Shown here piece after piece: positions 6,736-50,510 of a DNA stretch of 64,000 bases. The position numbers and the translations under genes were made by a program. Location of the stretch: assembly GCF_026151205.1 (NCBI RefSeq), contig NC_087073.1, positions 10,266,636 through 10,330,635 of the forward strand, in the 5' to 3' direction. This DNA comes from Bolinopsis microptera. Lineage: Eukaryota. Numbering within the stretch: the first letter of the stretch is position 1; the number at the start of each line of letters is the position of its first letter. Under the pieces are notes generated by a model that saw only the letters and a program-made list of their open reading frames with translations, searched no databases and was not told the origin of the DNA.

Positions 6736-7192
6736 AATCACTCTACAGTCGATCTTCGAAATTTTTCTAAAAGGCCCCCCCGACAGTTGAGACCAACATC
6801 ATTCGATGTATTTTCGGACGCTGATTCCGAATCACCCCCCATGATTGTAGCGCGATGCACTACTGGGTCGCGCCGCGCATCAAATAATTCGTCTATGCAG
6901 ATCGGCGAGATGCGAAGGATTGACATCGTGAATCAACCCCCATGACATAGGGTTAAAATGCTCCCCTAGCGAGATATTGGCGAAAAACTGTTTTGATCAC
7001 GTGATATGACCATATACGGAAGTTAGTCTAATTTCTCGTTAGGGTTAGGGTTTCAGCATATGCTTTTGTTAAAGATTGGGTTAGGGTTAGGGTTGGGATC
7101 AGATTAGAGGGCTATGATTTCGAATAGTCATTCAGGGCCACCAAGAGAACGTGTTTAAAAAGTCACGTGACAGTCGAGTGTAGAGTGATTAA
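6736..7192 (+). mobile_element. Telomere-repeat-bearing MITE (T-MITE family), copy 1
   Basis: TIR AATCACTCTACAGTCGA at the left and TCGAGTGTAGAGTGATT at the right. Internally it carries CGGACGCTGATTCCGAATCACCCCCATGA, degenerate (TTAGGG)n (gttagggttagggtt...gggttagggttagggttggg) and two TCACGTGA palindromes. Homologous copies lie at 28455-29087 and 50081-50510. Confidence 0.6.
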
Positions 7193-7254
7193 TCATCATC
7201 CCGGGTTCAACAAATTGCTCTACTAAACAAATAGGTGATTTTTATTTTTATTGA

Positions 7255-8457
7255 TTGTTGGATAGGATGGCAGGAATACCAGATGCCAAAGACCCAGTGT
7301 ACCCCTTTGTGTGCACAGTACCTACTTACGAAGAGTTTGAAAAGAAGATCAAAACACGACGCAATGGATCTTCACCAGGGCCCAACGGAGTGCCATACAT
7401 AGTTTACAAAAGGTGTGCCAGGCTGAGAGAACTATTGTATGCGTGTATTAGTAAACTCTGGTTATCAAACAGTGTCCCCTTGCAGTGGAGAATTGGAGAA
7501 AGCATCCTACTTCCCAAGACCACGGACCTTAGTGACCCTGGCAAGTTTAGGAACATCACTATGACTAACACCAGTGGGAAAGTGGCAATGGGTATGCTAG
7601 CTGATAAAATGCTCGACTACATGACCACCAATAAGTACATCGATACCTCTGTGCAAAAAGGCTTCCTGCGCAAGATGCCAGGATGCATAGAACACACACA
7701 AGCGCTCATGGAGGAACTGCGGGATGCAAAGAGTAAGAGAAGACAGGTGTATGCAGTATGGGTGGATCTTATGAATGCTTATGGGAGAGTACCCCATGAG
7801 CTGATAGTGTTTGCGCTTCGGCACTACAAGTTCCCGGAAGAAGTGGTCCAATATATTGTCAAGTACTACGACGAACTGGTAGTACGGGTGAAGACGAAGA
7901 AGTGGAAGAGTGAGTGGTTCTACTACCTAATCGGGTTGTTTCAAGGGGACCCGCTTTCTGTCGTGCTATTCTTAATAGCATTCAACCTACTCTTGGATTT
8001 ACTTCAGGTCGACAGAACAATGGGATACAAGCCGTCGTTCAGCTCTGAGCCAACTACAAACAGAGCTTTTGCAGATGATCTCACCCTGCTGTCTGACAGA
8101 CTCGACAAAATGAAGAGGCTGGTCGGGCAAATGGAGGAATTCTTAGCATGGACAAGGACGATGAGAGCTAAACCCAGCAAGTGTATTGCTCTCGGAATGA
8201 AGGTAGTGGACAATACCTACAGATCGTTTGACCCTGAGATCATCATTGCAAACGAGAAAGTAGCGTACCTTGGTGACACACCGATAAAGTTCCTTGGTCA
8301 CTGGATTTACGTCAACCTGGGCCAAGATGAGACGAGAGAGCTAATCACCACTCAACTTTCAGGCCAGCTGGAAAAAGTAGACATGGCGGAGCTCTCTGGA
8401 CCAAGCAAGTGCTGGATCTACAACCACATGCTAACTAGCAAAGTACAGTGGAATATT
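7255..8457 (+). CDS. Reverse transcriptase, N-terminal part of the LINE ORF. It continues in frame at 9832 once the nested element is removed.
   Basis: The ORF-track protein has the canonical LINE RT motifs 0-5, including FADD. The frame is open from the TGA stop at 7252-7254. Confidence 0.75.
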
Positions 8458-9823
8458 GGGGGGGGGGGGGGGGGGGGGGGGGGGCCAATGGCATAAATGG
8501 AGAAAATGGAGAATTACTCATGGGTTTTTCCATTTTCTCCATAGAAATAGTCTCCATTTTATGCCATTTTATGCCATTTTATGCCATTTTATGCCATTTT
8601 ATGCCATGGAAAACCTGAAAAATTTAGAATTTCGAGAAAAATTATTAAAAAAAAAGATATTTTCGGCCAATAATGAACAGAGTATCATGAAACATGGAGA
8701 AAAGTGGTTTTCAGAAAAACTTTGAAAGATGTTGACTTAAAAAATGTTCGGTCCGAGTCATTTACGAAACGTACCTCCCGTATCGAGAGCTCCCGATTCC
8801 GAGCTCGTGTTGCAAAGGGGAGGCCTATCTTCCGAGATCGCATTTCCTCGAGTCCAAAATTGTGTATCGAGGGGAAGGTGTGGACTTCGAAAAACCGAAA
8901 AAATATTTTCGGCAAATAATGAACAGAGTAGCATGAAACGTGGAGAAAAGTGGTTTTCAGAAAAACTTTGAAAAATTTTGACCGAAAAAATATTTTCGGC
9001 TTATAATGAACAAGGTAGCATGAAACGTGGAGAAAAGTGTTTTTCAGAAAAACTTTGAAAAATGTTGACTTAAAAAATTACCCCTCGCTCGGTACACAAT
9101 TTTGGACTCGAGGCTTCCCCCTGGTAATGCGATCTCGGAAGGCAGGCCTCCCCTTTGCAACACGAGCTCGGAATCAGGAGCTCTCGATACGAGAGGTACG
9201 TATCGAGAATGACTCGGGCCGAAAATTTTCCAAGTCAAAATTTTTCAAAGTTTTTCTAAAAACCACTTTTCTCCACGTTTCATGCTACCCTCTTCATTAT
9301 GAGCCGAAAATATTTTTTGGTTTTTCGGTTTATCGAAGTCTGCACCTACCCCTCGATACACAAATTTGGACTCGAGGCTTCCCCCTGGTAATGCGATCTC
9401 GGAAGGCAGGGCTCCCCTTTGCAGTGCGAGCTTGTTTCGACTGTCGAGGATGTAGGTCTCACTTCTCAGTGCCTATTACTCTCCCCTATTACTCACTCCT
9501 GCTGTAGCCTGTAGAAATAACTTTACACTAGGCTTGAGTGATTATGAGTTTGCCTGAAGTGTGCCTCTACTAACCTAGTATAAGCATCTAGTAGCCTACT
9601 ATGAGCTTTCATAAGCTTGTTACGCCCCTAGTAAGCGTAAATAAACATGTTAGGATGTCCAATTTAGGTGTTAAATGGTATTAAAGATGAAATTTCGAAG
9701 ACAAAATTCATGGCATAAAATGGAGAAAATGGAGAATTACTCATGGGTTTTTCCATTTTCTCAATAGAAAAAGTCTCCATTTTATGCCATTTTATGCCAT
9801 TTTATGCCATTGGCCCCCCCCCC
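8458..9823. mobile_element. Foldback-type DNA element with homopolymer termini (G27 ... C10), inserted into the LINE RT ORF. Element A of the polyG/polyC-capped family.
   Basis: G run at 8458-8484 and C run at 9814-9823. Inverted subterminal blocks CCAATGGCATAAATGGAGAAAATGGAGAATTACTCATGGG... mirror ...CCATTTTATGCCATTGG. (TTTATGCCAT)n tandem copies sit at both ends. Internally there are ~75-bp tandem units and a long inverted repeat (8760-8880 versus 9090-9200). The 8-bp direct repeat GGAATATT appears at 8450-8457 and 9824-9831. Confidence 0.7.
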
Positions 9824-9831
9824 GGAATATT

Positions 9832-11181
9832 ATGATATACAACCTCCCAGTATCATTCATCCAGACACTAGAGGCTCTTTGTACCAGATACTTGAAGAAA
9901 TGGCTTGGAGTTACTACTTCCATATCGAATAGTGTGCTGTACAGATCAAAAGACCACTTTGGACTATCGTTAAAGCAGATCTCCAACCTGTACAAATGTC
10001 TACAGGTGTCCAAGGCCTATATGCTGAAGACATCGGTTGACCCCAAAGTGAGGGAGGTTTTCGAGTACAGAGAAAACACCAACAGAGACAAGAAGAGATG
10101 GGACTACACCAAGGAGCTGACTAATAGGGAGAGAGACCTCTACTTCAAAGAACTGATTGGCTACGTGCAGACCAGGGAAGGAGCCGGTATTGGATTCGGT
10201 GATCAGAGGAGGAAGAAGAACAAAAAGGAGCAACTGGTGGAGATAATTAAGTCTCTGAAAGAAGAGGAGCTCCTTCAAACTCTCTACGATAAGAGAGTCC
10301 AAGGAAAGTTTCTAACCTGGGAGAACACCATGCAGCTAGACACTGGCTGGCAAAGCCTGCTGTATACCTTGAGCCCTGAGCTGACAAAGTTCCACCTAAA
10401 TGCCATCCACGACGTTGCAAGTACACCTAGCAACCTCCAGCTTTGGAACTACAGCTCCACGAACAACTGTCCCCTCTGTGGGCGTCAGCAGTGCAACCTA
10501 AAGCACATTCTAACGTGTTGCCCAGTGTCGCTTAAACAAGGAAGATATAATTGGAGACATGATCAGGTGCTCAGGGTTATCGTGCAACCAATTGCAGAGA
10601 AGCTGAGGGAGACAAACAGTGCTACCCCAAAGACAGAAGTGAAGAGAGAGTGGAGGAAGTTCGTATCCGGAAAAGGAACCTACAGGAAACCCGAAGTACG
10701 GCTTACAGAAGAACCTCATCTTCTAGAGGAAGGTAACGACTGGAAACTAGTGTTTGATGAGGACGAAAGGACAAGACAATTCCCCCAACATATTGTCAAC
10801 ACAGCTCTCAGACCTGATGTGGTAATATACTCTAACACACTCAGGAAAGTCATCCTGATAGAGCTGACCTGTGGAAACGAGGAGAACTTTGAGGACCAGA
10901 GATCCCGGAAAGAGAAGAGATACGAAGAGCTAATGGTGGAGATCGAGACCGCAGGCTGGGAAGGATATCTCTTTACAGTAGAAGTTGGATGTCGTGGATT
11001 CTACCACCACACATTACCCCGAATTTTCAACTTCCTTAACATCACCCGGGCAAAGAAGAAGAGGGCACTTAACACAACAGCGGTGGTGTCCCTGAAAGGT
11101 TCCTACACTATCTGGCTTAGTCGCTACAACAAGACCTGGAGTGACAACTGGCAGCTGGCCGAAAGACCCTGCCCAGTTTAA
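9832..11181 (+). CDS. LINE ORF C-terminal part: RT thumb, CCHC zinc knuckle and restriction-like endonuclease
   Basis: ORF 9784-11181. The frame is continuous with 7255-8457 when 8458-9831 is excised: cag tgg aat att | atg ata tac reads QWNI|MIYNL. Confidence 0.7.
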   Translation: MIYNLPVSFIQTLEALCTRYLKKWLGVTTSISNSVLYRSKDHFGLSLKQISNLYKCLQVSKAYMLKTSVDPKVREVFEYRENTNRDKKRWDYTKELTNRERDLYFKELIGYVQTREGAGIGFGDQRRKKNKKEQLVEIIKSLKEEELLQTLYDKRVQGKFLTWENTMQLDTGWQSLLYTLSPELTKFHLNAIHDVASTPSNLQLWNYSSTNNCPLCGRQQCNLKHILTCCPVSLKQGRYNWRHDQVLRVIVQPIAEKLRETNSATPKTEVKREWRKFVSGKGTYRKPEVRLTEEPHLLEEGNDWKLVFDEDERTRQFPQHIVNTALRPDVVIYSNTLRKVILIELTCGNEENFEDQRSRKEKRYEELMVEIETAGWEGYLFTVEVGCRGFYHHTLPRIFNFLNITRAKKKRALNTTAVVSLKGSYTIWLSRYNKTWSDNWQLAERPCPV

Positions 11182-12325
11182 TCCTGATGAACAGCTGAAC
11201 GTTGGGCCCTTAAAACGTCGTTGAAAGCTACATCTGGGGTCGTAAGTCCCAGACATCAGAAGAAGTCAGAGAGTGTAGAAGATTCTGCGTCTGAAAAGAC
11301 TAGAGAATTGAGGTAAATATAGTTGGTTTGGTCCCATAACTTTTATATAAGAGGGTCATTTCGGACTCGATGCAAACTCTCGATGAATCTTCTGGAACTA
11401 CAGTTATACGTAATTCGAAAATTTTATGTCCGAGGAAGCTTGAAAGCTTGGAAAATTGTAATTGAATTTGAATACGGACTATGTTGTAGGTTTATAACCT
11501 ACCAGGACGCGCGCCGAGTATGGAACAAATATTTTACGAGTATCACACGTTAAGGTCTATGTAATCCAACTCACCTATTATGGTACTGATACCAGCTTTT
11601 TCAAGGAAGTCTAAATAAAATCCGGAGGGATACACTCGGGTCATATATACGACGCACTGTCCAAGGCAAGCAAAGATCACTATTGTCATCATATGAAATG
11701 TTGTCATTTCTGCAAATTTTATGGTTAATAAATAATAACATAATCTCAAACTTTTATCATTTTGAATTTTAAGTCACCGTACTAATGAAGTCACCGGAAT
11801 AACGAGGATTTATACTTTCGTGAGCGGTAAAAAAACAAAAAATAAACATTTACCCTCCAAACGTTCCTCGTCATCTGATGTCACCGGTTTGTCGTCATCG
11901 TTCCCTTCTGAAGTATCACCAAAAGCAATAATTTCCAACGTCTGGCTAGGGTCTGAAACTATGATTTATCGTCAGCTTATCGTTAAATTTCTTCGAATTG
12001 CAAATGGAAGCACCATTTGCTATTATATTTAAAAAGTAACGATTCAACCCTTACTTAACCGGAAAAAAGCAAGTAACGTGAACATTTTCAATTTTTCTAA
12101 TCATATTATGTTTTGTTTCGAGCAGATTCACTTCCAGAATTATCGAAGTCCTCAATGTTCAAAACAGAATTCGCTATGACCAAGTTTTCGTTTAAAATGT
12201 TTCTGTCTGAAAATGACTCTAAAGTCTAATGATAAAAATGCAAATGTTACTCTAATGATTTAGCCCATTCTCCATGAAGCAGCAGTATGTGGGCGCTAAA
12301 ATAATGTAGGAATCTTGACAGGAGA

Positions 12326-12721
12326 GGTCACTGGTCACTGGTCACTGGTCACTGGTCACTGGTCACTGGTCACTGGTCACTGGTCACTGGTCACTGGTCA
12401 CTGGTCACTGGTCACTGGTCACTGGTCACTGGTCACTGGTCACTGGTCACTGGTCACTGGTCACTGGTCACTGGTCACTGGTCACTGGTCACTGGTCACT
12501 GGTCACTGGTCACTGGTCACTGGTCACTGGTCACTGGTCACTGGTCACTGGTCACTGGTCACTGGTCACTGGTCACTGGTCACTGGTCACTGGTCACTGG
12601 TCACTGGTCACTGGTCACTGGTCACTGGTCACTGGTCACTGGTCACTGGTCACTGGTCACTGGTCACTGGTCACTGGTCACTGGTCACTGGTCACTGGTC
12701 ACTGTGCACTGGTCACTGGTC
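12326..12721. repeat. Microsatellite (TGGTCAC)n, about 56 copies
   Basis: A perfect 7-mer tandem array is directly visible. It sits inside a ~120-bp flanking duplication (12140-12300 versus 12850-12960). Confidence 0.95.
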
Positions 12722-13220
12722 AAAGGATCAGGGTGTTGTCAAATCATAGAATTTAATCTATGTTTTATCTAAAACTCGATAAATCAAAATCGGCAAAACA
12801 AACATGTAGCATGTATAATTAAAAATGTATATTCACTCACAGTCCTCAACGTTCAAAACAGGATTTGCTATGACCAAGTTTTCGTCTAAGATTTCTTCTG
12901 TCATGACTCAAATGATAGAATGTAGCCGATTCTCTGTAAAGCAGCAGTTCTTCGTCAACAGGAAAAAACAGAAATTAGAAGAGTAAAATCTTTTGATTTT
13001 TAGTAGTTTAAATTCTGTTTAATATTCATATCCATGGGAAATTTATTTCGTTTATAACTATGTCTATTCCCTCTCAGACGGTTATTTAGTGGTCATGGTA
13101 TTTTGTGGCCGAGCAGTAGCAGTACTGCCAGTACGTTACTTTTGAAGACCCAATGACCACTCATGCTGTCAACCATTATTTTGTATTTTAAACTATCCAT
13201 TTTTCCCAGCTACCCGCTAC

Positions 13221-13437: not shown

Positions 13438-14429
13438 CTTTTTTAAAAAAAGGGGGCTCCGGCAAGAAACGTGAAGCTAAAAAAAGGGGGCTTAGACAAG
13501 AAACGTGAAGCTAAAAAAAGGGGCTCAGATAAGAAAAAGGATGACAAAAATAGGGGCTCAGATAAAGAAAATAAAGTTACAAATAGGGCTTCAGATAAGG
13601 AAAATGAAGGAAGAAAAGCCAAGTTTGATAAATGTGAGAAATTCAATGAAGTTGTATCTGCGACAAACTCGGTTTTGGTTACAGCTAGTTGTGAGTTGTG
13701 ACTTGAGTGAAGTGCCCTCCTGGTCTAACGCGTACGGACTACTGGTATTTTATTTTTGTTTAATTTATAAATTTAAACTTAAGGAGCTCAACAGCGACAA
13801 ATTAATACAATAAATTGTTATTAGACAATAAACTATCGCACAGATTATATTCAACGATTATTCAACGATTAAACTCCCAGTAAATTATCTGAACAGGTTT
13901 TATGCAGAATATGCACGGAAACATAGTGATCGCTTTCAATTAGAGAAAAGAAGCTGCATCGCTTGTTTATGCTTAGAATTATAATAGTTGTACGTTTTTT
14001 CAGGAAATTGAAAGCTTGTACTGTGGGGAAGAAGAAACAATTACATAAACAGTGAACGAGAGTAAAGCTGTAAAAAGACTACAAAGTTCAGCACCTCCCC
14101 CAGACGTTCTTACTAAACAGGTATCCTCATTTCTTAATCCACTGCTCACTGTTCAGTAGTTATAGCCTCTACTTCCCACTACCATTCTAAGTAAACCTAA
14201 GTAAACCACAATTTCCCTGCTCAACAGTCTATAACCCCCCACTTTACTAATCGAACAAGTACGTCCGCAATTAAATGAGGGTATTAATTTGTCCATTTGT
14301 TGGCGAAATTAGGTAACTTGCATCCCGCTGCTGGCTTCTTTCTAGTTTCAACGAAGACAGAACCCGGTTCGCAAATAAGTGTCCATGTCCCTAGAGGCTA
14401 GAACCCTATCACTTTTTCTAAAATATGTA

Positions 14430-17499: not shown

Positions 17500-17566
17500 A
17501 ACTTGTTTTATGATCCATTTAGACTTGTTTAAGTGATCACGTGATGCTTCGATTAATGGTAATTGG

Positions 17567-17680
17567 TAGGATAAGTGTTATGGTTAGAGTTAGGTTTGTG
17601 GTTTGCTTTGAGGTTAAGGTTGGGGTAAATGGGTTAATATACCAGTTCCGAAGCAAAAGGTTCTGGACAGGACGTCGTGC
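17567..17680. repeat. Left copy of a ~115-bp direct repeat flanking an intronic minisatellite. Related to the T-MITE internal region.
   Basis: taggataagtgttatggttagagttaggtttgtggtttgctttgaggttaaggttggggtaaatgggttaatataccagttccgaagcaaaaggttctggacaggacgtcgtg. Repeated at 18376-18490. A TCACGTGA palindrome sits just upstream at 17538. Confidence 0.7.
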
Positions 17681-17740
17681 CAACCCTTGGTGCGTCGTGT
17701 CGTAGAGCTAATCGTCGATTACAACAGACCGAGCAACTGC

Positions 17741-18095
17741 AATGTGCTGCATTGTGCTGCATTGTGCTGCATTGTGCTGCATTATGATTCATTGTGCTCT
17801 TTGTGATTCATGGTGCTGCATTGTGATGCATTGTGATTCATTGTGATTCATTATGATTCATTGTGCTCTTTGTGATTCATGGTGCTGCATTGTGATGCAT
17901 TGTGATTCATTGTGATTCATTATGATTCATTGTGATTCATTATGATTCATTGTGCTCTTTGTGATTCATGGTGCTGCATTGTGATGCATTGTGATTCATT
18001 GTGCTGCATTGTGCTGCATTGTGCTGCAATGTGCAGCAATGTGCTGCAATGTGCTGCAATGTGCTGCAATGTGCTGCATTGTGGTGCCACTGCAT
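17741..18095. repeat. Minisatellite, 10-bp unit CATTGTGCTG with variants (CATTGTGATT, CATTATGATT)
   Basis: About 35 tandem 10-mers are directly visible. The antisense and sense poly-HCAA / CNVL ORFs (17940-18230) are artefacts of this array. Confidence 0.9.
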
Positions 18096-18375
18096 GCGCC
18101 AGGACATTGAGCTACTATCCCGGACACAGAAACAAACACTGCTATGTCTACTGTAGAGCACACCTTTTTGTAGTAGTAATAGAGTAAAAGGTAGCACACT
18201 TATTGGCCACTTATGGCAGCAAGGGGCCATGTTAACTCGGTAACATGTTCATTGTGTAAAAATATAAATATTGCTCTGCTCGCCGAGATTAGGCAATATC
18301 TAATCATCTGATTAAGATAACATCATGTGACAAAGATAGCCTAGAAGATGAGACGATTAACCTAACCAATAAGAG

Positions 18376-18490
18376 TTAGGATAAGTGTTATGGTTAGAGT
18401 TAGGTTTGTGGTTTGTTTTGAAGTTAAGGTTGGGGTAAATGGGTTAATATACCAGTCCCGAGGCAAAAGGTTCTGGACAGGACGTCGTGG
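18376..18490. repeat. Right copy of the ~115-bp direct repeat
   Basis: Near-identical to 17567-17680. Confidence 0.7.
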
Positions 18491-19942: not shown

Positions 19943-20185
19943 TTAATTAAGGCCAGATTACAGGCCAAAGCAAGGTCTTACTAACGAGGCACTGATCCAA
20001 CCATGATGCATCCGACAGCGCGCGTACAATTAACAAACATGTAGCTGCAGCCTAACAGTAACAGCAACTCTGGCCGAAACGTAACTTTATTCTGAGTTAT
20101 GTAACTGCATTTATCGTCTCGACGATATAAATAAAGCAGTTTTTGTCGATTAGTCGTACAATTGAAAATTCCAACGATGTATCCT

Positions 20186-27666: not shown

Positions 27667-28454
27667 TGCCCCTGCTATAAGTTTAGGCGATGTTGGATGT
27701 GATCCAAGTTACTCTGCCTGGTGTCTTTTTTGAGTTCCAAACAATACAAAGTCTGACAAAGCTTAACACAGTCATGGAGAATAAATAAATCTGTGATCCG
27801 ATAGTGCTGACAACGCCAATAACTGAATACTCAGTGCTTGTCATCCACTTCATTTGATCTCTGCAGTATAATCCATCTTTTGAGGTGATGTTAATGTTAT
27901 CATAGACTGCTATGCTGAGAAGTCGAGAAGATAACAGCCCACTAGGAAGTCACCAAAAGAAATCAAAATCACTAAACATTTGTTGACCATAACAACAGCG
28001 TTTTTACTGGTACCCAGCTTGCGTAGAGACTTTATGATTATTAATATTATTACAATAGATAGTTTTTGGGAGTTCCAAATAGTTTCTGATTATTCTGATT
28101 TCTTGCGACAAATGATACTGCACTGTTAGAATAAACGACGTTTCAAAGTAACAACTTCGTACTCATGCTAATATTATTATTATATATATTATATATATTA
28201 TATAATATTATTACGTTTGCGATGATATATAATAATAGCCGATATCCCGATAGACCATGACAGAATTTTAATGATAAGAGTTGCCCAGAAATTTTTTCAG
28301 CAGTGATCGTTGCATTCATTTGTGTTATCCAAGCAATCAAATTTCCCATCGCATTTTTTAGTCATCGTTATGAAATCATCTGGATCACATCTGATCGAAG
28401 TGATTTGTACCGCTCCTACTAAATCGCTCGCCCAAATTTTAAGAAAATTCTTGT

Positions 28455-28519
28455 GAAAAGGCCCTTTGGGCATAAAAAGTGATCTGGATGGGTGTATTTT
28501 TGGACGCTGATTCCGAATC

Positions 28520-29394: not shown

Positions 29395-29760
29395 GCAGCG
29401 TGGCCCAGTTGCTAATTGTCCATTGTTAATGGACTAGCCCGGCGCGCGCTACTTTATACCGCTACTTTATAGCACTTACTTGCCGTTGGCCTTGACCATT
29501 GGTAATGGTCTGGCCCGGCGCGCTACTTCGTAGCACGTGCCATCGGGCCATAACATTTCGAGAAGAAAGCGGCGCGCGCTACTTTGACGGATGTTACTCG
29601 TCTAAATTGCTTGACGGATGTTACTCGTCTAAATTTCTTCGAAGTAGCGCGCGCCGCTTTTTTCTCGAAATGGCCCGGTGGCAAGTGCTACGAAGTAGCG
29701 CGCGCCGAGCCAGATCATTAACAATGGTCAAGCGCTACCTCGAAAAAATTTAGACGAGTC
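29395..29760. repeat. GC-rich compound palindrome (nested inverted repeats)
   Basis: Repeated CCGGCGCGCGCTACTT / AAGTAGCGCGCGCCG(G) arms lie around a centre near 29620, where TTGACGGATGTTACTCGTCTAAAT occurs twice. The outer arms GGCCCAGTTGCTAATTGTCCATTGTTAATGG and CCAGATCATTAACAATGGTC are also inverted. Confidence 0.6.
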
Positions 29761-30995: not shown

Positions 30996-31027
<32 letters not shown>

Positions 31028-35325: not shown

Positions 35326-35442
35326 GTAAGTTTTAAAAGTTAGAGAAAGGAAATTAGTCTAGTTGTGTTGTACTTTCTTGTGACTTTGACTTTCGAGTTA
35401 ATACTCGTGATGTTAATAAATCTGTTAACTCAATTATTTCAG

Positions 35443-41285: not shown

Positions 41286-43334
41286 CGGTCCTGAAGTCGA
41301 GAATTGAATATCAGCTAACTTCACCTATCATTGATTCCTAACTTCCTGTTGATTGGAGAGCGAACTTATTTACATAGTGCTGTTTCCTGACAGTGTATTC
41401 TAGTGGGAGGTGAAGCATATTTTTGGCACGTGCAGTGATCTGGGGGACGGGGTTTGACTGGTCAATAGTGGTAGATGATTGGTTTATTGCTGTCACGTGT
41501 CAAAACGATATACCTGACCTCCCCACCATGCATCAGAATCCACGTCTATATTTAATCAAAGCAAAATATTTTTCCAGTTAATCAAATCAAAACATGAAAA
41601 AAGAAGTGTAACAAAAAGATTAAATTATGACATTACTGGCCCCATAACAACTGTGCGAACAATTTAAAGAACTTGTAAACTTGTGTTACTTGTCATGGTG
41701 CATCAAACACCACCACCCCGGTTCAGTACGGATTTAATGGGGGATGCGGGGAGTAATACTGGACCATGTTATGTGAACTGTGGTCTGCACTCATATTAGT
41801 GTGGTGGAAGACATCACATCGTATTTGTTTTGATAATGATACTGAAACAGTTGGGGGGGGGGGGGGGGGGGCGTCCAACCCGATTTCCGATATGAGGGTT
41901 GATGAGGCCAAAATCGGAATCGGAAAAATAGGAAAATTGAGAAATTTACTGAATCGATCTCTAAAACCTCTCAGAAGTGATATAATTTAACCAGAACCCC
42001 TACATATGCTATGTATGCTATATGAAAACGAACCAATTGTACATTCCAATAGTATGTTTTATGTGTATTCCCATTTCCCACTGCATGCATGATGCAGGGG
42101 CTAGTATGCTCACTACTAGTTGGAGTTATCATGTACTCCCAGACCCGAGTGCTTTGGTCTCTTGTGAGATCGATTGTTTCTGCTCATTGATTCTATCCCT
42201 GTTACTTGTTATTATGTATTAGTAGTAGTACAACACTGGGTACCGGGTTATATTTTGTGGTCCGGTCTTTAAACATACCATAATATCACTATACTTAGTA
42301 TACTGCACCTTAAGGCCACAGGGGGGGGGGGGGGGTCGAGGCCTCAAAAAATGCAAAAAAATATTATGCTTTGAATTAATATATATTTTTGTGGCGGATA
42401 CTTTGCCACCACTCATTTGTCTGTAGCTATTTTACTTTTTTTAATAAATGAGGTTAACCAATTCTTCCGAAATTGGCTATGCAATATTGAGGGTAACGAA
42501 ATTGATGCCTAGAATTGATTTCATGCCAAGATATTTTGTTGTTTCGATCAACAAATAATGAATCCTAATTCTGTTTCGCAATTGGTTGAAAATGAAGGAC
42601 CCAAAGTGGGTAAAAACGAGGTTAACCTCTTATTTCATTGATATCGAGAAGGACTGAGATGAAAGTTATCATCATTCATAAAGTAAGTTCAGTGCATTTT
42701 AATTTCAAAACGTATCTCGTACTAATGTATTACTTCAAATCTACAGAAAATCTAAAAAATGAGGTTAACCAGGTAAATTGTGACCACTATAAAACATACA
42801 TAATTGTCTAATTTTTAATCGAACTCAAGACATTAGTAAGTTATATATTTGCTGGGAAGATTGATCACGAGAAAAATATGATTTGAAACAACTATTCCTT
42901 GCAAGCAATATTGACCATTAACATACGATAAAATGAGGTTAACCAACTTATTTCAATTTGTAATACAGCAACTTTAATGGAACCTTAATAGCGGTTAACC
43001 TCACATTTGAATATCAGTTAACCTCAAATTTGCATCATTAATATGCAGTACTTGCAGGAAATGGTGTTTCAGGGATTTAATCTCCTTAAGTGTATCAAAA
43101 ACTACAGTATATAACATATGGAACTACAAATACAAGCCATACCATGTGTTTAGTGACTAAAGTTAACCTCATTTTTTTGATGAATCGATGATGGAGGGCA
43201 GAAATATTGATGCCATTACAACTGAAAACTACTATTAGTTTTGTTTTTATAGTTTTTGTGTTATATCAGCAGTTAAACTTTGAGAAATATACAAATAAAG
43301 GCAAAATACTCAAAAATCACAAAACATAAAAAAC

Positions 43335-44566
43335 TAGGCTATCCATTATCGGTATGAAATCTTTTATCTAGATAAACAGATAAAGATTTAGGTTTTATCT
43401 AGATAAAACCGATAAAACCGATAATTTTTCTGCTGAAGGCCAAAGCCTAAATGTTTTCCAAATTTCGCAAAAACTAATTGTCGACTTTTATTACTGTTTA
43501 CCAGTAATCTTGCTAAAGTACCACTTCCTTTCTTTTGAAAATATTAGAGCATCAGTTTTCTTCTCCGGGGAGCAGAAGTGCACCAGTTTTCTTCAAAACA
43601 GTAGACCAACGGTTTTCTTCGCCTAAGAACAGTAGTGTACTACCAGTTCTCTTCAAAACAGTAGACCAACGGTTTCTTCTCCTGAGAACAGTAGTGCACC
43701 AGTTCTCTTCAAAACAGTAGACCATGAACGGTTTCCTTCTCCTGAGAACAGTAGTGCACCAGTTCTCTTCAAAACAGTAGACCAAGGGTTTCCTTCTCCT
43801 GAGAACAGTAGTGCACCTGTTCTCTTCAAAACATTATCTGACCAAGGGTTTCCTTCTCCTGAGAACAGTAGTGTACTACCAGTTCTCTTCAAAACAGTAG
43901 ACCAACGGTTCTCTTCTCCTAAGAACAGTAGTGCACCAGTTCTCTTCAAAACAGTAGACCATGAACGGTTTCCTTCTCCTGAGAACAGTAGTGCACCAAA
44001 TACCAATTCTCCTCGAAACAGTAAAGCATTTAAAGTGATTCAGTGAACCGTTTTCTTATCCTGTTGATAACTTGGAGCAACAGATTCCTACTCCTGAAGA
44101 CAATGTTTCACGCCCAGAACACTTACGGAATTCAATTGAGTGCCCTGCCGGTATTTTTGACTCTCGTTAACAGTAACATGCTCGTTCCCGTCTCCAGAAT
44201 GATTATAAGGTAAAACGCCAGCACTCTCAAGAGAACAATGTCAATAACCTTCTCTGGATTTCAACAGTTCATACAGTTCTACAGTTCCAAAGGTATACAA
44301 ATGTAAATAAACCTCTTAAGCTCACATCTAAGTAAACTACCTCTTCTATCATACTAGAAGACGTTTGGGACTGTTTCTTGGATTACTTAGGAAGGCAAAA
44401 ACACTGATATTTCTTTACAATTTTACGGTATTGTGGAAGTATTTTCGGTAATATCTAGTGAATTTTTATACCGATAACAATATGTTTTATCTAGATAAAC
44501 AGATAACTTTTTTTAACGAATTATCGGATATAATTATCGGTTACGATTATCGGAGTGGATAGCCTA
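43335..44566. mobile_element. hAT-like MITE with an 8-bp TSD, nested in D. Element E.
   Basis: TIR TAGGCTATCCATTATCGG ... CCGATAATCGTAACCGATAATTATATCCGATAA...GGATAGCCTA. Subterminal TTTATCTAGATAAACAGATAA occurs in both arms. Perfect 8-bp direct repeat TAAAAAAC at 43327-43334 and 44567-44574. Confidence 0.65.
43535..44010. repeat. Minisatellite, ~56-bp unit x ~8, inside element E
   Basis: Unit agttctcttcaaaacagtagaccaacggtttcttctcctgagaacagtagtgcacc. The ORFs 43552-43785 and 43653-44006 are artefacts of this array. Confidence 0.9.
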
Positions 44567-45381
44567 TAAAAAACAGTTTTTTGCCTCTCCTGAAAACCTC
44601 GAATTTTAGACTTTAAAATCTATCTTCTCCTAGAGCTTTTATCCAATTCACCTCAAATTTGGAACATACGTTCCTGACATAAATTTAAAAGTTTGTTATG
44701 TAACGATTGTTGTAATTTTGCTCCTAACTCTTTTTATGAGGTTAACCGTTTTAAATTTTGTAACCCGTACTTATGGTTAACCTCATATCTCAGCTTTGGA
44801 GCAAGATATCAAAAATCGTTACATAACAAAAACTCAAAATACCTTGAAAAACATTTTTGCCAAGTTACAAGGTTCTAAGTCGTAAACTGTAAAAGAAGAT
44901 AGATTTTGAACACGATTTCATTTAAAGTTTTCATTTACAATAGAATTACAGGTAAACCTCAAAATTCAACGCGCGATATCTTCAAATAGGAAAGTTTGTT
45001 TTCAGTAAGGACAAAAGCATTTGAAAATTTAGATCGAGCTCTACAACATATCTCAAAATCTCAAAATTGACCTCGGACCCCCCCCCTGTGGCCTTAAATG
45101 TATAGTCAAGTACGTTTGTAGCGTGATCGGTGGTACATGCTTGGCTTTAATAAACATGTCTGTAGGTACATATATAGTAAACTATATGGCAACACATAAC
45201 GGTCCATGGCAAGTTTAAATTATTATCTAATGTGCATCAGTATTGTATAATCCAGTGTCGAAAATTGTTTCTTCCATTCAATATAAAGTTTTGCTTTATT
45301 CTTTATTTATCGTCTCAATTTTGTACATTTTGTGTGGTTATTTTTTCTCAAATTAGTTTTGAAATTTCTTGTTCATTGTAA

Positions 45382-46531
45382 TTGATCAGTTTGTGCAGGG
45401 CGTTGGCCTCTGCTTTTCTGTTAATCTCAGAATTCTTTTCACTATATCTTCTTCCAGGTCTCATGCCAAAATATACTGATATGGTGGAGACACCTTCACC
45501 ACCTGGTATTACCAGTCAGAAAACAGCCCGATCAAACAAAATAGCAACCAGAAAACAGCCCCAGAATAAGGGCAACAAACTGAAGATAAAACTCCGTGGC
45601 CGTCTCATAAAGAAAGGAAAAGTTGAACAAAGCACCAACAAGAAACCTAAAGATTTATCCGAGAAGAAGGCACCAGATGTTGGCAGTGCATCCGGAAAAT
45701 CCAAGCTTAATCCTAGAAAGAAGAAAAGAATTGCTACGATATCATCAGACTCAGATTCAGAGGCAAATGTGCAGCTGAACAAGAAAAATGTAAAGGATTT
45801 GTCACAGCGCCAAAAACTTAAAGCTGTGACAAATCCTTTACATAAAGAGGAAGGACAAACAAGAATACAAACAGCGAAAGACTTTATGGCTATCGTTAAA
45901 ACAGCTAATTTCCTTGCTAAACTCGATAAAGACCCCACGTATTCAGATATAAGCAAAGTTTTTGCCAATTTTGATATGACCCTATCCAAAACTGTTATTG
46001 ATGATGTTTTCAAACGGCGTTTTACAAAAAAACCCAGTAAGAAACTCCATTTATTTATGAAAGGGGCAATTCATGGGTACCCCGAAAATCTTAATCGATT
46101 TCAGTATCGGCGAAAGCCGCAGAACAGACCTGTGTTGAAACCCACACCGGAGCCTGAGAAGACTACAAGAAAGTTTGAAAGTTTCAAAACTTGCAAAGAA
46201 GCACTCTGGACTTTCTTATGCAACAGTCTTTTCACTCGGCATTACTGCCATAGAAAAGTTTGGTCCTCACGTCCTTGATGACGATTATAAGTTGGAAGCT
46301 CTTGTAGAGGCAGAGCTATGCAAATGGAGGCAAGATAAACTTCTATTCTCATTCGGAAATCTCCCATCGGCTGAAAAGATAAGTGTGCCAGAGGCTGTCA
46401 CAGAAGTCAGCAACCTTCTCGTGATTAGACTTAAGACTACTGTAGATGAGCTCAACAATCCAGTCTCTCAGGGCTGCGGTTCAGATCAATCGGACGGTGA
46501 TCGTGTGTTTAATTTTTCATTTATAGAATGA
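45382..46531 (+). CDS. Lys-rich ORF pair (298 aa and 118 aa, separated by one apparent frameshift near 46180-46280) of unknown function, inside element C
   Basis: Long open frames reading KKGKVEQSTNKKPKDLSEKKAPD... and ...LEALVEAELCKWRQDKLLFSFGNLPSAEKISVPEAVTEVSNLLVIRLKTTVDELNN. No recognisable transposase motif (no DDE/BED signature seen). Confidence 0.25.
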
Positions 46532-48520
46532 TTTCAGTACTGACACTTTTTGACTAAACCCAGATTGCCGTGATCAGACATCGCATCAGCATGTGATTAT
46601 GGTGGTCAGCTTTTTTACTACATTAAATGAAATGGTACTGTAATCTGTATCATGTATATATTGCTCTGACCACACCTTTTTTAATGATTCATCAATTTGT
46701 TGTTCCATGCCAGTACAGTGGCATATTAGATTTGGTTTTTAAATATTTAGATTTTTAAGTATCTTATTAGATTTTATGTTGTTAAATTGGTTTTTTAAGT
46801 TATTAAATTGGTTGTTTGACTGACTTTTTTTGATTGTTTATTATGTTCTTGTTTAAATTGTTTAACTTTGAACTTTATTTACTGTAGATTTTTACAGCCA
46901 GTAACGGCAGTACGGGATTTTGATTATTAAATCTCTTTTTCAACCTTATAATCAAATATTTTAATCCATTGTTGATTGTTCTGTATTGACTTATTATATA
47001 TTTTCTAATTCGATATACATGATTTTTACTTTACACTGATGTTTCACTTGAATATTTGTGTCTCTTGATAACAATTACAATTTCTGCTGAAGATTGTTCT
47101 TTGATCTTAGAATCAATTTAAAACAAAATATTAAAAATTAACCATTACAGTGTGCACAGCTCAATTGAAGTTTCAAAATGCAATATAACATAAAGCCATT
47201 GTTACTATTTGGTTTGGGGTTCTGGGACCACCACCAATCAATTTCTTGTCATATTTAAGTACAGAAATAGCTACCTATATCGCCTAGAAACCTCAGAGGA
47301 AAGATTTAAATTTTCCCGATTTTCCCGATATAAGGGTTAATGATGAATGAGGCCAAAATCGGAATCGGAAAAATCGGGTTGGACCCCCCCCCCCCCCCCC
47401 CCCAACAGTTTAAAGAGTTTGGTCTCTGCACTACCCCGAAGACAAACTTTTAAAAATTTTACGAACCTTGATAGCATTCGCCATAATTATCAACAAGAAA
47501 CAAAACAGCTGGCAGAAAGAAGTAGAACTTCTCATATCAAACACATCTTAGCAAACAGCATGATACAAAGTATGTGATCACCTCGTGTCATAAACTGAAT
47601 TTTTACTATTAAGAGTTAATATTAAGTGATATTAAGAATTAAACTTTTTTTAATCTACCTGCAAATTCGATCTTATTATCCAGTACAGACTGCAGCAGGC
47701 CCTGCGTGTTACGGACGCGGTAAAGTTAAACACATTTAAATCAGAATCTGTTTTTCATTTTTAATGTTTTTAATGTCACCGCCTGGAATTATTTTGTACT
47801 ATGCAATCTTTATCTATTGTTAGAATTTGATTTGAACAAGATATAGTGACTATGATAATTTAAGATATTGATTGAATGCAGCTTATTGACGATCGTGCAG
47901 CTTATTGACGATCGTGAGGTAACGATGGTTGATTAAATTTAAATTCATCACGCTTGGCTTGAGAACGTTGAATATCCCTATTCACAAAATTGAAAATAAT
48001 ACATAAATTATTGAAAGGATTCTTAATCCTAAGATAAAGAATTCGATTAGATAGTTAGATATATCAAGCACATGAGTTTGCTTCAGTGATCAGTTCGTTG
48101 CAAATATTAAATTCGCCAAGTAACAGATCTTAAATTCATGTTGCAAAATTATAGGTTTCTAAACTAACTTTTTAATTACCTACATGGCGATTCGTGATTT
48201 ATTTATAACGATAATTTCACTTTCTTAAAGTTTAAATAAAAGATAATTCAATTTCTAATTTAAAGTGGGTAGAAATATTAAATCAAAAGTGTTTAACATT
48301 TTAATGTCCGATCAACCAATCGATGAATACATATCATTTAAATTGGGTAGGATTGCTATTTGAGTATTAGTATTAGCATTAGCAATTAGTGATTGGTCAA
48401 CTGCACAAGCCCATGTTTATTTATAGATTACCTTAATTCCCAAAAATTTGGGCGACAAAAAATTTGAGCGGGCCTCTCGCCCAAATTTTTTGCAGACCAA
48501 ATTAATTGCATAATAATTGC

Positions 48521-48837: not shown

Positions 48838-48945
48838 CTGTACGGCAAGTTAAACAAGGATCTGAAACTACTAGGTTCCGTACAGACTCAACTCTGCACC
48901 CGTGTCAATATGTTCATTATATGCAAGCCTCTTGATTTATAAATC
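48838..48945. repeat. ~105-bp direct repeat, copy 2
   Basis: Near-identical to 48521-48625. The spacer between them is ~215 bp. Confidence 0.7.
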
Positions 48946-49040
48946 TTTTCCGTCTGCTAAATTTTTTGCTAACCAAACTTTTGGCATTTGGCCTGTGGCC
49001 CTGAAATCTATAGAAAGATGGCTTTTTCTTCATATCCAAG

Positions 49041-49636
49041 CGGGGGGGGGGGGGGGGGGGGATCAGGTACCAAGTGCCGGACATCACGTCGACTAAGTGT
49101 AGTTTTGGATATTTTTCACTAGACCCACCCACCCCCTTTGCGGTACTAACTGTTTTTTTGGATAATACGTAAGACACCCACCCCTTTTGCCGCCTTTTGC
49201 GGTACTAACTGTCGAAAAATCGTGGTACTAACTGTTTTTTGGTATATAGAATAAGATACCCACCCATAAATTGCTTTAAACAGCTCATTAAACATTGGAA
49301 ATGGGAAAATTATACCCACTATTTAGTAGGGGTTTTGTTTTCAATGTCGTCGAATTAGCTAAAAAGTTACACAAAAAATTTTAAAATTACAAAAAACCCA
49401 AAAAAAAACTCAAAAAAACCTCAAAACCCATTCCCAAAATTGAAATTTGAGGTAAAATGGTTTTTTTTGGGGTTGGACACCCAAAAAATTAACCCCTTAG
49501 TACCATGTACTAATTGTTTTCCTGGAAAATGGGCAGTAGACCCACCAGTTAGTACCATGTACTAACTGTGTTTTTGGGAGAAAAAATGACCCACCCACCA
49601 CCGTCATGTCCGGTACTAAGTGTATGATCCCCCCCG
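49041..49636. mobile_element. ~600-bp MITE with homopolymer termini (CG20 ... C7G). Element F.
   Basis: CGGGGGGGGGGGGGGGGGGGGGATCAGGTACCAAGTGCCGGACAT at 49041 mirrors ATGTCCGGTACTAAGTGTATGATCCCCCCCG ending at 49636. Internal tandem CCCACCC...TTGCGGTACTAACTGTTTTTT units. Flanking direct repeat ATCCAAG at 49034-49040 and 49637-49643. Confidence 0.65.
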
Positions 49637-50080
49637 ATCCAAGTGAAATAATATTTAAAATTTTAGTTTTCCAATTCTGCTTAAAATTGAAAGCAAAATG
49701 ACTGGAATAATAAGGAATAATAATGAACTAAGGCAAATATCTAACTGAAATTTTAGTGGAAAATCGTTCATTTTTGAAGAATTTGTGCCCAAATTTTCGG
49801 TCGCCCAAATGAATTCAAATTTTCTGCCCAAATTTTTCGGGCTCAAATAAATTGTGCTCAATATAATGGCACACAAATTTTTGGGAACTAAGGTAAAACT
49901 TTAACAATTCTTGTTTTACCAGGATCAAGCATCACATGGTATGTACGGCCACCCAGCTATCACAAAGTTTAATTAAGTTGCGCACGAATCGGAGTACAAA
50001 GTTGCATGAGATTGTCACATATTTCCCTCGCTCTATTTTGACGAGCGCGCTAATATATAACTCACTCTAATTAAATATAG

Positions 50081-50510
50081 AACTCACTCTAAACTTGATA
50101 TTCGAGATTTTTCTAAAAGGGCCCCCGACAGTTAGCTGGAACCATCCAGAAACAATGTATTTTCGGACGCTGATTCCGAATCACCCCATACCGAATCACC
50201 CCATTCCGAATCACCCCATACCATGACATAGGGTTAAAATGCTCCCCTGGCGAGATATTATTATTGGCGAAAAAACTGTCTCGATAACGTGATATGACCG
50301 TATAAGGAAGTTGGTCTGATTTCTCGTTATGGTTAGGGTTTCACTTTCAGCATATGATTATGCTTTTGTTAGGGATTGGGTTCGGGTAAGGATCAGATTG
50401 AGATTAGAGGATTGGGGTTTAGAATAGTCGTTCAGGGCCAGCTATAATTATAGAGAACGGGTTGAAAAAGTCACGTGACAGTCGAGTGTAGAGTGATTAA
50501 TCATCACCCC
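50081..50510 (+). mobile_element. T-MITE copy 3
   Basis: Collinear with 6736-7192: ...TTTTCGGACGCTGATTCCGAATCACCCC (with a triplicated ATACCGAATCACCCC), ATGACATAGGGTTAAAATGCTCCCCTGGCGAGATATT, TTAGGG-like tract, then AAAAAGTCACGTGACAGTCGAGTGTAGAGTGATTAATCATCA. Confidence 0.6.

Follow-up and report, generated by a model that had tools for sequence, protein, structure and literature searches.

A probable MITE family of lobate ctenophores with an internal TTAGGG-like tract

Mutator DNA transposons typically generate target-site duplications of 9-11 bp. Telomeric repeats are carried at the termini of some mobile elements, such as the Athena and Terminon Penelope-like retroelements of rotifers, which attach at chromosome ends. 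The TTAGGG telomere motif is in use in ctenophores. It is also the general telomere motif of animals (PMC13605101). Merlin elements make 8-9-bp duplications and have terminal inverted repeats (TIRs) of 24-462 bp with a terminal 5'-GG, and highly imperfect TIRs are on record for them (PMC8101967).

Here we analysed a 64,000-nt stretch of the Bolinopsis microptera genome (NC_087073.1, positions 10,266,636 to 10,330,635), which we refer to as the window. An earlier note, made from the letters alone, had described in it three loci of a mobile element with telomere-like arrays and palindromes. All the features it described were found at or near where it had placed them, each above chance. The dispersed repeats are very probably a non-autonomous class II (cut-and-paste) DNA transposon family of the MITE type in lobate ctenophores, whose TTAGGG-like cargo is passive. 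The three loci do share one element; the window, however, holds four copies rather than three, designated A, B1, B2 and C. Their features are as follows.

6716-6724: left target-site duplication of A (CGGGTTCAA), a 9-mer with one other occurrence in the window, at 7202
6725-7201, + strand: full-length subfamily-1 copy A (477 bp, foreign insert counted), with ends CGAGCGTGCTAAATCACTCTACAGTCGA ... TCGAGTGTAGAGTGATTAATCATCATCC
6845-6929, + strand: foreign insert of ~85 bp in A at the C-run hot spot (TTGTAGCGCGATGCACTACTGG...), a gap in B2 and C
6997-7004: central TCACGTGA of A, end of the conserved core
7037-7125, + strand: telomere-like tract of A, with two perfect (TTAGGG)2 dimers
7163-7170: subterminal TCACGTGA of A, adjoining the 3' TIR
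7202-7210: right target-site duplication of A (CGGGTTCAA)
17534-17669, + strand: GATCACGTGAT and then a degenerate GGTTAG-type tract, a distant relative or a fragment; matches the family profile at nhmmer E = 5e-4
18370-18489, + strand: second degenerate tract, 94% identical to 17560-17679; nhmmer E = 0.63 only
28411-28697, + strand: 5' part of copy B1, subfamily 2, starting CGCTCCTACTAAATCGCTCGCCC; older, interrupted by B2
28522-28552, + strand: C31 homopolymer at the C-run of B1, C5-C7 in all other copies
28698-28706: target-site duplication of B2 (TTATGGTTA), within the telomere-like tract of B1
28707-29097, - strand: full-length subfamily-1 copy B2 (391 bp), inserted into B1
29098-29106: second target-site duplication of B2 (TTATGGTTA)
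29107-~29195, + strand: 3' part of B1, the remaining telomere-like tract and AAAGTCACGTGA; 3' TIR lost or degenerate
50033-50041: left target-site duplication of C (CTATTTTGA)
50042-50509, + strand: copy C, subfamily 1, old, 5' end degenerate and partly duplicated; ortholog at L001 21154-21543, with synteny on both flanks
50176-50222, + strand: 15-bp tandem triplication (CCGAATCACCCCATA x3.1) at the C-run hot spot of C
50510-50518: right target-site duplication of C (CTATTTTGA)

The element is ~375 bp long (family range 360-480 bp), has a GC content of 45%, and begins with 5'-CG and ends with CC-3'. Every family copy conserves CGAGCGTGCTAAATC at the 5' end and GATTAATCATCATCC at the 3' end, and all 13 copies that include the 5' end start with CG or CA. 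The TIRs are imperfect and 27-28 bp long; their arms match at 22 of 28 positions in subfamily 1 and 21 of 27 in subfamily 2 (21 of 28 in copy A), and in subfamily 1 complementarity between the two ends is only weak over the outermost 11 nt. The consensus has no coding capacity, its longest stop-free stretch being 53 codons, and thus the element would have to be mobilised in trans. A search of the element against Rfam gave no match, its folding was no better than that of shuffled sequences (z = +0.7), and no covariation was seen in the core. Inverted-repeat ends, target-site duplications, small size, lack of coding sequence and many dispersed copies in several genomes bear out the MITE-type family proposed in the earlier note. 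Its TIR boundaries, however, were too short: the true ends lie 11 nt further out on each side, where they are flanked by 9-bp duplications.

These duplications are perfect at five independent insertions, with boundaries that are consistent across copies: A, B2 and C in the window, L011 (AGCTCGGCG) and L002 (TTCACGGGA). By chance, a 9-bp match would arise within +/-3 nt of both ends with a probability of 6.7e-4 per element. A clean duplication is missing in three of the eight full copies; no duplication is seen in L003, L008 is 3'-truncated, and that of L001 matches at 6 of 9 positions, with 87 extra bp in the 3' flank. Furthermore, the empty state of the B2 site can be seen in its paralogs, the subfamily-2 copies L011 and L012, which read GCTTCGGGGTTATGGTTA-GGGTTA and contain TTATGGTTA once. 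The element would thus be moved by a transposase making 9-bp staggered cuts, a signature of two superfamilies, Mutator and Merlin. The duplication appears to point to one of these, an assignment that depends on its length alone because no autonomous partner was found: 56 ORFs of at least 130 aa in ~225 kb of ctenophore DNA contained no DDE-transposase domain and no DDE_Tnp_IS1595 protein (Merlin).

The same boundaries bear on two other readings. In copy A the inner repeat has TAA on both sides (gtgcTAA/ATCACTC ... GAGTGAT/TAAtcat), as in a Stowaway- or Tourist-type MITE that ends at (TT)AATCACTCTACA..., with a TA/TAA duplication and a Tc1/mariner or PIF/Harbinger transposase. This assignment is extremely improbable, since the TAA/TTAA and a further 8-10 nt outside it are conserved in all copies and therefore belong to the element and not to target DNA, and unique 9-bp duplications lie at the longer boundaries of the five insertions. 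It is just as hard to credit that the copies are not transposons, but subtelomeric or interstitial-telomere pieces spread by segmental duplication, recombination or repair, with incidental inverted repeats. Such an origin would fit the single orientation of the telomere-type hexamers and the local clustering of copies, as in the nested pair at 28.5 kb and in L011 (three copies or fragments within 3.5 kb) and L012 (two within 0.8 kb). However, all copies share the same sharp ends, their flanks show no relationship to one another, the 9-bp duplication is unique and differs per site, one insertion has a paralogous empty site, and copies are dispersed over several genomes.

We next consider the telomere-like cargo of the MITE family. 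Full copies carry 2-5 perfect TTAGGG hexamers on a single strand, against a background of 0.09 per 400 bp, with at most 2-3 units in a perfect row and 0-1 CCCTAA on the TTAGGG strand of the tract. Perfect (TTAGGG)2 occurs in the window only inside A and B2. With at most one mismatch allowed, GGGTTAGGGTTA has 12 occurrences in the window (0.26 expected), 11 of them within copies. The palindrome TCACGTGA occurs nine times (7 within copies) against 0.59 expected, a count reached in 0 of 100 shuffles. The earlier note had given each element two or three palindromes; intact copies have two, and in C one of the two is mutated (TAACGTGA). It had also taken a consensus lacking TTAGGG tracts as the mark of local secondary expansion. 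Every copy covering the region carries the tract in the same place and orientation (14 aligned copies, two subfamilies, at least three genomes or metagenomes), indicating ancestral cargo rather than local secondary expansions. The tract already existed in the ancestor that the two subfamilies share, and it is probably carried passively and altered by slippage and point mutation. The telomere-like sequence that the earlier note reported at 17.5-18.5 kb gave a weak but significant profile match (17534-17669), and a 10-bp minisatellite lies between its two degenerate tracts, 17560-17679 and 18370-18489.

Subfamilies 1 and 2 have in common the outermost ~16 nt, a 103-bp internal core ending in TCACGTGA, the telomere-type hexamer tract and a second TCACGTGA beside the 3' repeat. 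The core is 89.3% identical between the subfamily consensuses, compared with 53.8% for the 5' part and 55.2% for the 3' part. The inner TIR arms differ between subfamilies and are complementary within each, both arms having changed together. One copy each was found in L001 and L002, which belong to different ctenophore assemblies, and further copies lie on ten marine metagenome contigs; the latter were retrieved by a core 22-mer, so this part of the small sample is biased to conserved cores. Copy density is uneven: four other ctenophore loci, 90 kb in all, yielded no copies, and neither did the 21 kb of L019. The helicase in the window is 95% identical to that of L001, 80% to that of L002 and 78% to that of Mnemiopsis leidyi (L002 versus M. 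leidyi, 88%), and the host lineages therefore differ. Sampled copies are at least 9% different from one another, with no sign of recent activity. The segment that holds copy A (~6703-11369) is absent from the sister species locus L019, and copy A arose after the split from that species.

Copy C is common to the window and the sister species (L001), and both of its flanks align (86-87.5%). The two orthologs are 85% identical, the same as the flanks; the hexamer tract is decaying in both, and the palindrome lost differs between them (GATAACGTGAT in C, GTCACGAGAC in L001). This pair, the only orthologous one available, argues against host-level constraint. It weighs on the idea that the family is a mobile protein-binding platform whose core the host keeps as candidate regulatory or chromatin-architecture elements, bound by T-flanked E-box factors (TCACGTGA), Myb/TRF-type proteins (TTAGGG) or ctenophore architectural zinc-finger proteins (CpG-bearing core). 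The better conservation of the core and both palindromes (89% versus ~54%) suits that idea, as do the genes nearby: A lies just upstream of an MFS-transporter gene, B 3.3 kb upstream of an SNF2/TPR helicase gene, and a region conserved with L001 lies ~0.7 kb from C. There is also precedent, in that placozoan Mutator TIRs hold a loop-anchor motif and looped promoters in Mnemiopsis are TE-rich (PMC12221973). On the other side, the sole orthologous pair decays neutrally, a cis requirement for transposition explains the conservation between subfamilies equally well, and the Mnemiopsis loop motif, compared by description alone, is described as GC-rich (PMC12221973), against 45% GC in the element. 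We consider such a platform improbable. Since inserted copies appear to drift neutrally, the core and palindromes are most likely conserved as a cis requirement of source copies, perhaps as binding sites for the transposase or an accessory protein, and use of inserted copies by the host is the less likely cause.

At the 28.5-kb locus the subfamily-1 copy B2 has inserted into the subfamily-2 copy B1, which is older, within the latter's telomere-like tract. The locus had been read as a head-to-head composite; instead, two copies of different subfamilies are nested, the outer one truncated at its 3' end, with no recognisable target-site duplication and 90% identical to the metagenome copy L011. 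The long hairpin proposed there agrees with our analysis, in which a single strand would fold in this way (z = -6.8). The C31 run is present in the assembly as reported and lies in B1, but it is not peculiar to the element, long G/C runs being frequent across the ctenophore loci examined. The C-run site differs in length in 5 of 14 copies and is a hot spot of instability, with expansion to C31 in B1 and a 15-bp triplication or foreign filler DNA elsewhere. The insert of copy A belongs to another repeat family, and the same sequence abuts copies in L005 and L011.

Long-read assemblies are at their least reliable in homopolymer length, and the window contains eight G/C runs of 14 nt or more, so C31 could be an assembly or base-calling artefact. 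We regard this as unlikely. Long G/C runs were also found in five of six ~20-kb ctenophore loci (four ENA assemblies), and in three cases a pair of runs makes up the matching G(n)/C(n) termini of an element that lies between short direct repeats. For two of these elements there are empty sites in the sister species, and together these elements and their empty sites indicate that long runs are real in these genomes. Moreover, the same site is unstable in other ways in other copies. It is the exact length of 31 alone that is uncertain.

Overall, the MITE family is of an ordinary type among mobile elements, and it is the cargo that is unusual, a decayed TTAGGG-type stretch and two TCACGTGA palindromes. 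Like MULE-type MITEs, it is small and non-coding, with TIRs, a 9-bp duplication of the length usual for that superfamily and arms that co-vary by subfamily. Unlike them, its repeats are short and imperfect at the very ends and no MULE transposase or long same-ended relative was found here; such MITEs do not typically have a telomere-type tract inside them or a core that is more conserved than the repeats. It resembles the non-autonomous elements of Merlin (IS1016-related) in having 8-9-bp-class duplications, TIRs of at least 24 bp (PMC8101967) and a 3' end ...CC-3', which is GG on the other strand, whereas its 5' start is CG/CA and not the GG expected of Merlin. Placozoan Mutator elements are likewise DNA transposons of an early-branching animal with a short motif of protein-binding type (a candidate here) near genes (PMC12221973), and the duplication class seen here is compatible with them. 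In that different phylum, however, the loop-anchor motif lies in the TIR and the link to loops rests on Micro-C and ATAC (PMC12221973), whereas the conserved block here is internal and the element is known from sequence alone. As in short interstitial telomeric sequences, a few tandem TTAGGG units with degenerate variants occupy internal chromosomal sites, but these repeats are part of a transposon and copied along with it, neither laid by telomerase at a break nor the relic of a fusion. Like the Athena and Terminon elements, finally, it is a mobile element carrying short stretches of the host telomeric repeat, although here the carrier is a TIR DNA transposon, its tract is internal and its sites are internal.

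Comparison of the copies showed that a single element is common to the three loci around 6.7, 28.5 and 50 kb, as the earlier note had proposed. The inverted repeats that it described are present, but similarity between copies extends 11 nt past them on both sides. At these longer boundaries unique 9-mers are duplicated exactly around three of the four copies in the window. The copies, and the gene next to copy A, are as follows.

5259-6701, minus strand: MFS-type transporter gene, homologues with PF07690
6725-7201: copy A, 9-bp duplication CGGGTTCAA
28411-28697 and 29107-~29195, forward strand: copy B1, subfamily 2, interrupted by B2
28707-29097, minus strand: copy B2, 9-bp duplication TTATGGTTA
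50042-50509: copy C, 9-bp duplication CTATTTTGA

The element starts with CGAGCGTGCTAAATCACTCTACAGTCGA and ends with TCGAGTGTAGAGTGATTAATCATCATCC, and apart from the subfamily-2 ends its terminal sequences are CGAGCGTGCTAAATC...GATTAATCATCATCC. The terminal inverted repeats match at 22 of 28 positions in subfamily 1 and at 21 of 27 in subfamily 2 (21-22 of 28 for copies starting CGAGCGTGCTAAATCACTCTACAGTCGA). The subfamily-1 consensus is 375 bp long, and the copies measure 360-478 bp, or 651 bp including a secondary insert, within the limit of ~800 bp for miniature inverted-repeat elements (MITEs). Coding capacity is absent, the longest stop-free stretch in the consensus being 53 codons. Perfect 9-bp duplications, found in five of the eight full copies, also flank two copies of subfamily 2, at L011 (AGCTCGGCG) and L002 (TTCACGGGA); allowing ±3 nt at each end, the frequency expected by chance is 6.7e-4 per element. 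The three full copies without a perfect duplication are those of L003, which has none, L008, which is 3'-truncated, and L001, where six of nine positions match and the junction holds 87 extra bp. The duplications of copy C and L011 span exactly 9 bp, and the bases next to them mismatch on both sides.

The family was followed beyond the window, which is eukaryotic in character, having ~38% GC, retroelement ORFs and split genes. An ORF of 961 aa at 32444-35329 encodes an SNF2+TPR helicase that is 95% identical to one ENA protein, ~80% to two others and 78% to a protein of Mnemiopsis leidyi; these matches place the source among the lobate ctenophores. DNA was fetched around two of its homologues, in a sister species (L001) and in a second ctenophore assembly (L002), whose helicases are 79% and 88% identical, respectively, to the M. 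leidyi protein. L001 and L002 have one copy each, and when JGI metagenome contigs were scanned with a core-derived 22-mer, ten marine contigs proved to carry copies. All sampled DNA, in which the source genome is represented by 64 kb, contains ~19 copies or fragments. Three of 13 loci have more than one copy; as a sign of clustering or self-targeting this is not clearly over expectation at the local density. Copy density is uneven, since no copy was found in four other ctenophore loci chosen as retroelement-bearing (L013-L016, 90 kb) or in the 21 kb of L019, from the sister species. Two matches in viral contigs are attributable to chance, lying in ~57% GC phage contigs without a profile match, and the viral-contig scans gave none for the terminal repeat. 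The copies form two subfamilies.

Subfamily 1: A, B2, C, L001, L003, L008 and several partial copies
Subfamily 2: B1, L002, L011, L012; ends CGCTCATACTAAATCGCTCGCCCAAA ... TTTGGGCGAGCGAATTAGTAAAAGCC

Related sequence noticed earlier at 17.5-18.5 kb was recovered as well: the family profile matches 17534-17669 weakly (E = 5e-4), where a degenerate GGTTAG-type tract comes after GATCACGTGAT. The tract has a second, 94% identical copy at 18370-18489. These sequences are distant relatives or fragments, not copies.

The 28.5-kb locus, read in the earlier note as a head-to-head composite, is instead a nested pair: B2 sits within the telomere-like tract of B1, an older copy in forward orientation. The ends of B1 differ from those of B2 (it starts CGCTCCTACTAAATCGCTCGCCC...), and its 3' repeat is lost. 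When B2 and one TTATGGTTA are taken out, the sequence matches other B1-type copies (GCTTCGGGGTTATGGTTA-GGGTTA in L012), so that the L012 junction is a paralogous empty site for B2. A long hairpin is still predicted for the locus as a single strand (-137.6 kcal/mol, z = -6.8).

By every testable feature the family is a MITE, and a real, fairly well-defined and new one: it inserts with a 9-bp duplication, does not code for protein, has two subfamilies with co-varying repeats and carries ancestral cargo. Our literature searches yielded no account of this family, of MITEs in ctenophores or of any that carry telomeric repeats. The length of the duplication bears on its class. A TA or TAA duplication at the boundary first proposed is excluded, as those bases are conserved element sequence. 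The same bases, TAA beside the inner repeat, might otherwise have indicated a Tourist element (PIF/Harbinger, 3-bp TWA) or a Stowaway element (Tc1/mariner, TA), and the true duplication is 9 bp; a hAT-type MITE would have an 8-bp duplication, and the repeats of copy C and L011 are exactly 9 bp. The family is therefore none of these three. The 9 bp of five insertions agrees with Mutator (9-11 bp) and also with Merlin (8-9 bp). Merlin elements have 8-9 bp duplications and terminal repeats with terminal 5'-GG (PMC8101967); here the 3' end gives GG, and at the 5' end every copy has CG or CA. We infer that a DDE transposase, of either the Mutator (9-11 bp) or the Merlin class, would mobilise the family in trans. 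No transposase domain (MULE/MURA or DDE_Tnp_IS1595) was found in 56 ORFs from ~225 kb, a sample far too small to exclude one. As ctenophore repeats are poorly catalogued, the ends, the 9-bp duplication, the two subfamilies and the dated insertions should aid genome annotation.

Two insertions could be placed in time. Copy C is orthologous to L001 21154-21543 in the sister species, with flanks on both sides aligning at 86-87.5% and the copies themselves 85% identical; the insertion is thus older than the divergence of the two species, and its drift matches that of the flanks. The central palindrome has been lost in C (GATAACGTGAT) and the subterminal one in L001 (GTCACGAGAC), and the hexamer tracts are eroding in both. 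The comparison shows neutral decay after insertion, and this sole orthologous pair speaks against host constraint. Copy A is younger. In L019 the equivalent of window position 6701 lies ~80 bp from that of 11370, and a 4.7-kb segment (~6703-11369) comprising a retroelement and copy A is missing. Because the sister species is without the entire segment, this gives timing rather than a clean orthologous empty site for A. The segment stands immediately upstream of the 5' end of the MFS transporter gene, whose product is 83% identical to that of L019 and which a Bolinopsis microptera protein matches at 70% over half the length. Insertion of A into a reverse-transcriptase ORF was considered and rejected, the reading frame being discontinuous across the site. 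The identity of A to B2 is 91%, and no sampled pair is closer; the sample thus holds no young copies that would point to present activity. Given the shared C and the absent A-bearing segment, insertions of this kind could be used among lobate ctenophores as presence/absence markers.

The gene at 49-3226 is 29 kb from the helicase gene in the window, and its match in L002 is 3.4 kb upstream of the helicase gene (window 3226-30198 compared with L002 6634-10001). Repeats (MITE A, retroelements, minisatellites and the MITE B pair) make up nearly all of the extra DNA before the helicase; a single MFS-transporter gene lies between them. L002 has a subfamily-2 copy of its own in this intergenic region, inserted independently; its opposite orientation and different duplication rule it out as an ortholog of B1. 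Between the core and the telomere-like tract of this copy is a very GC-rich insert of ~290 bp (L002 8370-8660), packed with short palindromes (GCTGCCGCGAAGCAGCAGC..., GCCACGCGAAGCGTGGC...).

TTAGGG is the putative telomere motif of ctenophores. A tract of TTAGGG-like hexamers is present in every copy that covers the region, and therefore goes back to the ancestor shared by the two subfamilies. The earlier note had left room for local secondary expansion of these arrays; in this sample the consensus carries the tract. Full copies contain two to five perfect TTAGGG and 6-14 hexamers with at most one mismatch, against a background of 0.09 perfect hexamers per 400 bp. The hexamers are always on the plus strand of the element, where CCCTAA occurs zero times or once. 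Within the window, GGGTTAGGGTTA with at most one mismatch occurs 12 times compared with 0.26 expected, 11 of them inside copies. The tract is short, with no more than two to three perfect units in succession, and perfect (TTAGGG)2, internal tandem repeats as in interstitial telomeric sequence, is confined in the window to copies A and B2. TTAGGG is the general animal telomere motif (PMC13605101). This telomere-repeat cargo is unusual and is carried passively. The family is one source of internal TTAGGG-like matches and should be masked when telomere repeats are scanned for chromosome ends or fusions.

The C31 expansion reported earlier is present at 28522-28552, in B1. In most copies the run between GAATCA and ATGAC is C5-C7, and it is C6 in L011, the closest relative of B1 (90% identical). 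The same site bears a 15-bp triplication in C, a foreign insert of ~85 bp in A (6845-6929), an insert of ~70 bp in the L012 subfamily-2 copy and 6 extra nt in L001, so that it is altered in five of 14 copies. Homopolymers of G or C of 14-31 nt occur about once per 10 kb, and long runs are found in the window and in five of six ctenophore loci of ~20 kb (four ENA assemblies).

Window: 8458, 28522, 30996, 41853, 42321, 47384, 49042, 52457
Other loci: L001 5434, 19634; L002 15675; L013 2232; L014 (4 sites); L015 4015

The C31 expansion fits this genome-wide tendency; sequencing error may affect its exact length only. Several of the 14-31-nt runs are the ends of three further elements, which have G(n) on the left, C(n) on the right and matching inverted sequence after these runs.

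41853-47403: G19-CGTCCAACCCGATTT...AAATCGGGTTGGA-C20, flanks AACAGTT
30996-32379: G30-TTCACCCTGATTTTTTTGTGAAAC...C11, flanks TTAA; wholly palindromic, 682-nt arms
8458-~9822: G27-CCAATGGCAT...ATGCCATTGG-C10, flanks GGAATATT

The sister species has empty sites for the first (L001 ~19690) and the second (L001 9938/9943), and the third lies between two retroelement ORFs (7255-8496, RVT_1; 9784-11181, zf-RVT). Their flanking repeats are of different lengths (4, 7 and 8 bp), and inspection of the 5.5-kb element at 41853-47403 revealed no transposase ORF. We know of no transposon class with homopolymer termini.

Other repeats accompany the family. Direct repeats of 300 bp with 99% identity (20177-20476 and 23452-23751) bracket an ORF of 970 aa on the minus strand (20399-23311). 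The ORF has no Pfam match, and many ctenophore homologues (up to 94% identical) carry PF28514 (DUF8422) and PF26215 (HTH_animal). The unit at 20177-23751 has the look of a retroelement-like repeat that was active recently; its GIY-YIG-like C-terminus suggests that it may be Penelope-like. About 220 bp downstream of B1, a nested palindromic element of ~316 bp (29416-29731) holds four copies of a GC-rich motif (GGCGCGCGCTACTT / AAGTAGCGCGCGCC), and related sequence is found twice in L019 (16967-17450). A further repeat family, with the terminus TTGTAGCGCGATGCACTACTGG(G/A)(T/C)CGCGCCGCGCATC, is found within or abutting MITE copies at three different positions.

Window 6845-6929: the insert in the C-run of A
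L005 ~1320-1374
L011 ~2122-2171 and 3228-3272

Long mini- and microsatellites occur at 12326-12722, 17737-18087 and 43530-43998 in the window and at L019 677-2412; their units include (GGTCACT)x57, (CTGCATTGTG)x35, whose higher-order periods are 30 and 69 bp, and eight copies of a 60-bp unit. The sequence at 14086-14156, single in the window, forms ~26 tandem repeats in L019, spaced 65 bp apart.

An alignment of 14 copies from both subfamilies revealed which parts of the element are conserved. Four parts are common to both subfamilies: the outermost ~16 nt, with 11 of 16 identical; a core of 103 bp containing TTCGGACGCTGATTCCGAATC (AATCGATGTATTTTyGGACGCTGATTCCGAATCAC-Cn-CATGACrTAGGGTTAAAATGCT...GrTCACGTGA); the hexamer tract; and the AAAGTCACGTGA that precedes the 3' repeat. 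The subfamily consensuses are 89.3% identical in the core, compared with 53.8% in the 5' part and 55.2% in the 3' part, and the inner repeat arms differ between subfamilies and are complementary within each. The paired palindromes described earlier are likewise well supported, as TCACGTGA occurs nine times in the window compared with 0.59 expected, seven times inside copies. An RNA gene or an RNA-derived (SINE-like) element was considered and rejected: the core has no Rfam match at the gathering score, with a lone sub-threshold match over the poly-C run; its consensus folds at -1.5 kcal/mol with 0 compensatory pairs; and a single copy has no unusual fold.

Between subfamilies the core and both palindromes are strongly conserved, and the old inserted copy has decayed; the best reading is a cis requirement of the source copies rather than host use. 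Of all the features, the conserved internal core alone could lead to mechanism, either the cis-requirements for Mutator/Merlin-type mobilisation or binding sites borne by transposable elements. We also considered, as an improbable alternative, that the family would be a mobile protein-binding platform, its CpG-bearing 103-bp core, two T-flanked E-box palindromes (TCACGTGA) and telomere-repeat tract being retained in transposition-competent lineages by recruiting host DNA-binding proteins. Candidate binders may include bHLH-Zip proteins of USF/MiT type, telomere proteins of Myb/TRF type and the loop-tethering zinc-finger proteins of ctenophores. If such recruitment occurred, the element would bring ready-made sites for regulation or chromatin anchoring, together with short internal telomere seeds, into the neighbourhood of ctenophore genes as it spreads. 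In Mnemiopsis, insertions of transposable elements are abundant in loop promoters, and CTEP1/2 bind a GC-rich motif with two CpGs (PMC12221973). In placozoans the motif of chromatin-loop anchors is located in Mutator terminal inverted repeats (PMC12221973), and a protein-binding role for the ctenophore family would parallel that arrangement.
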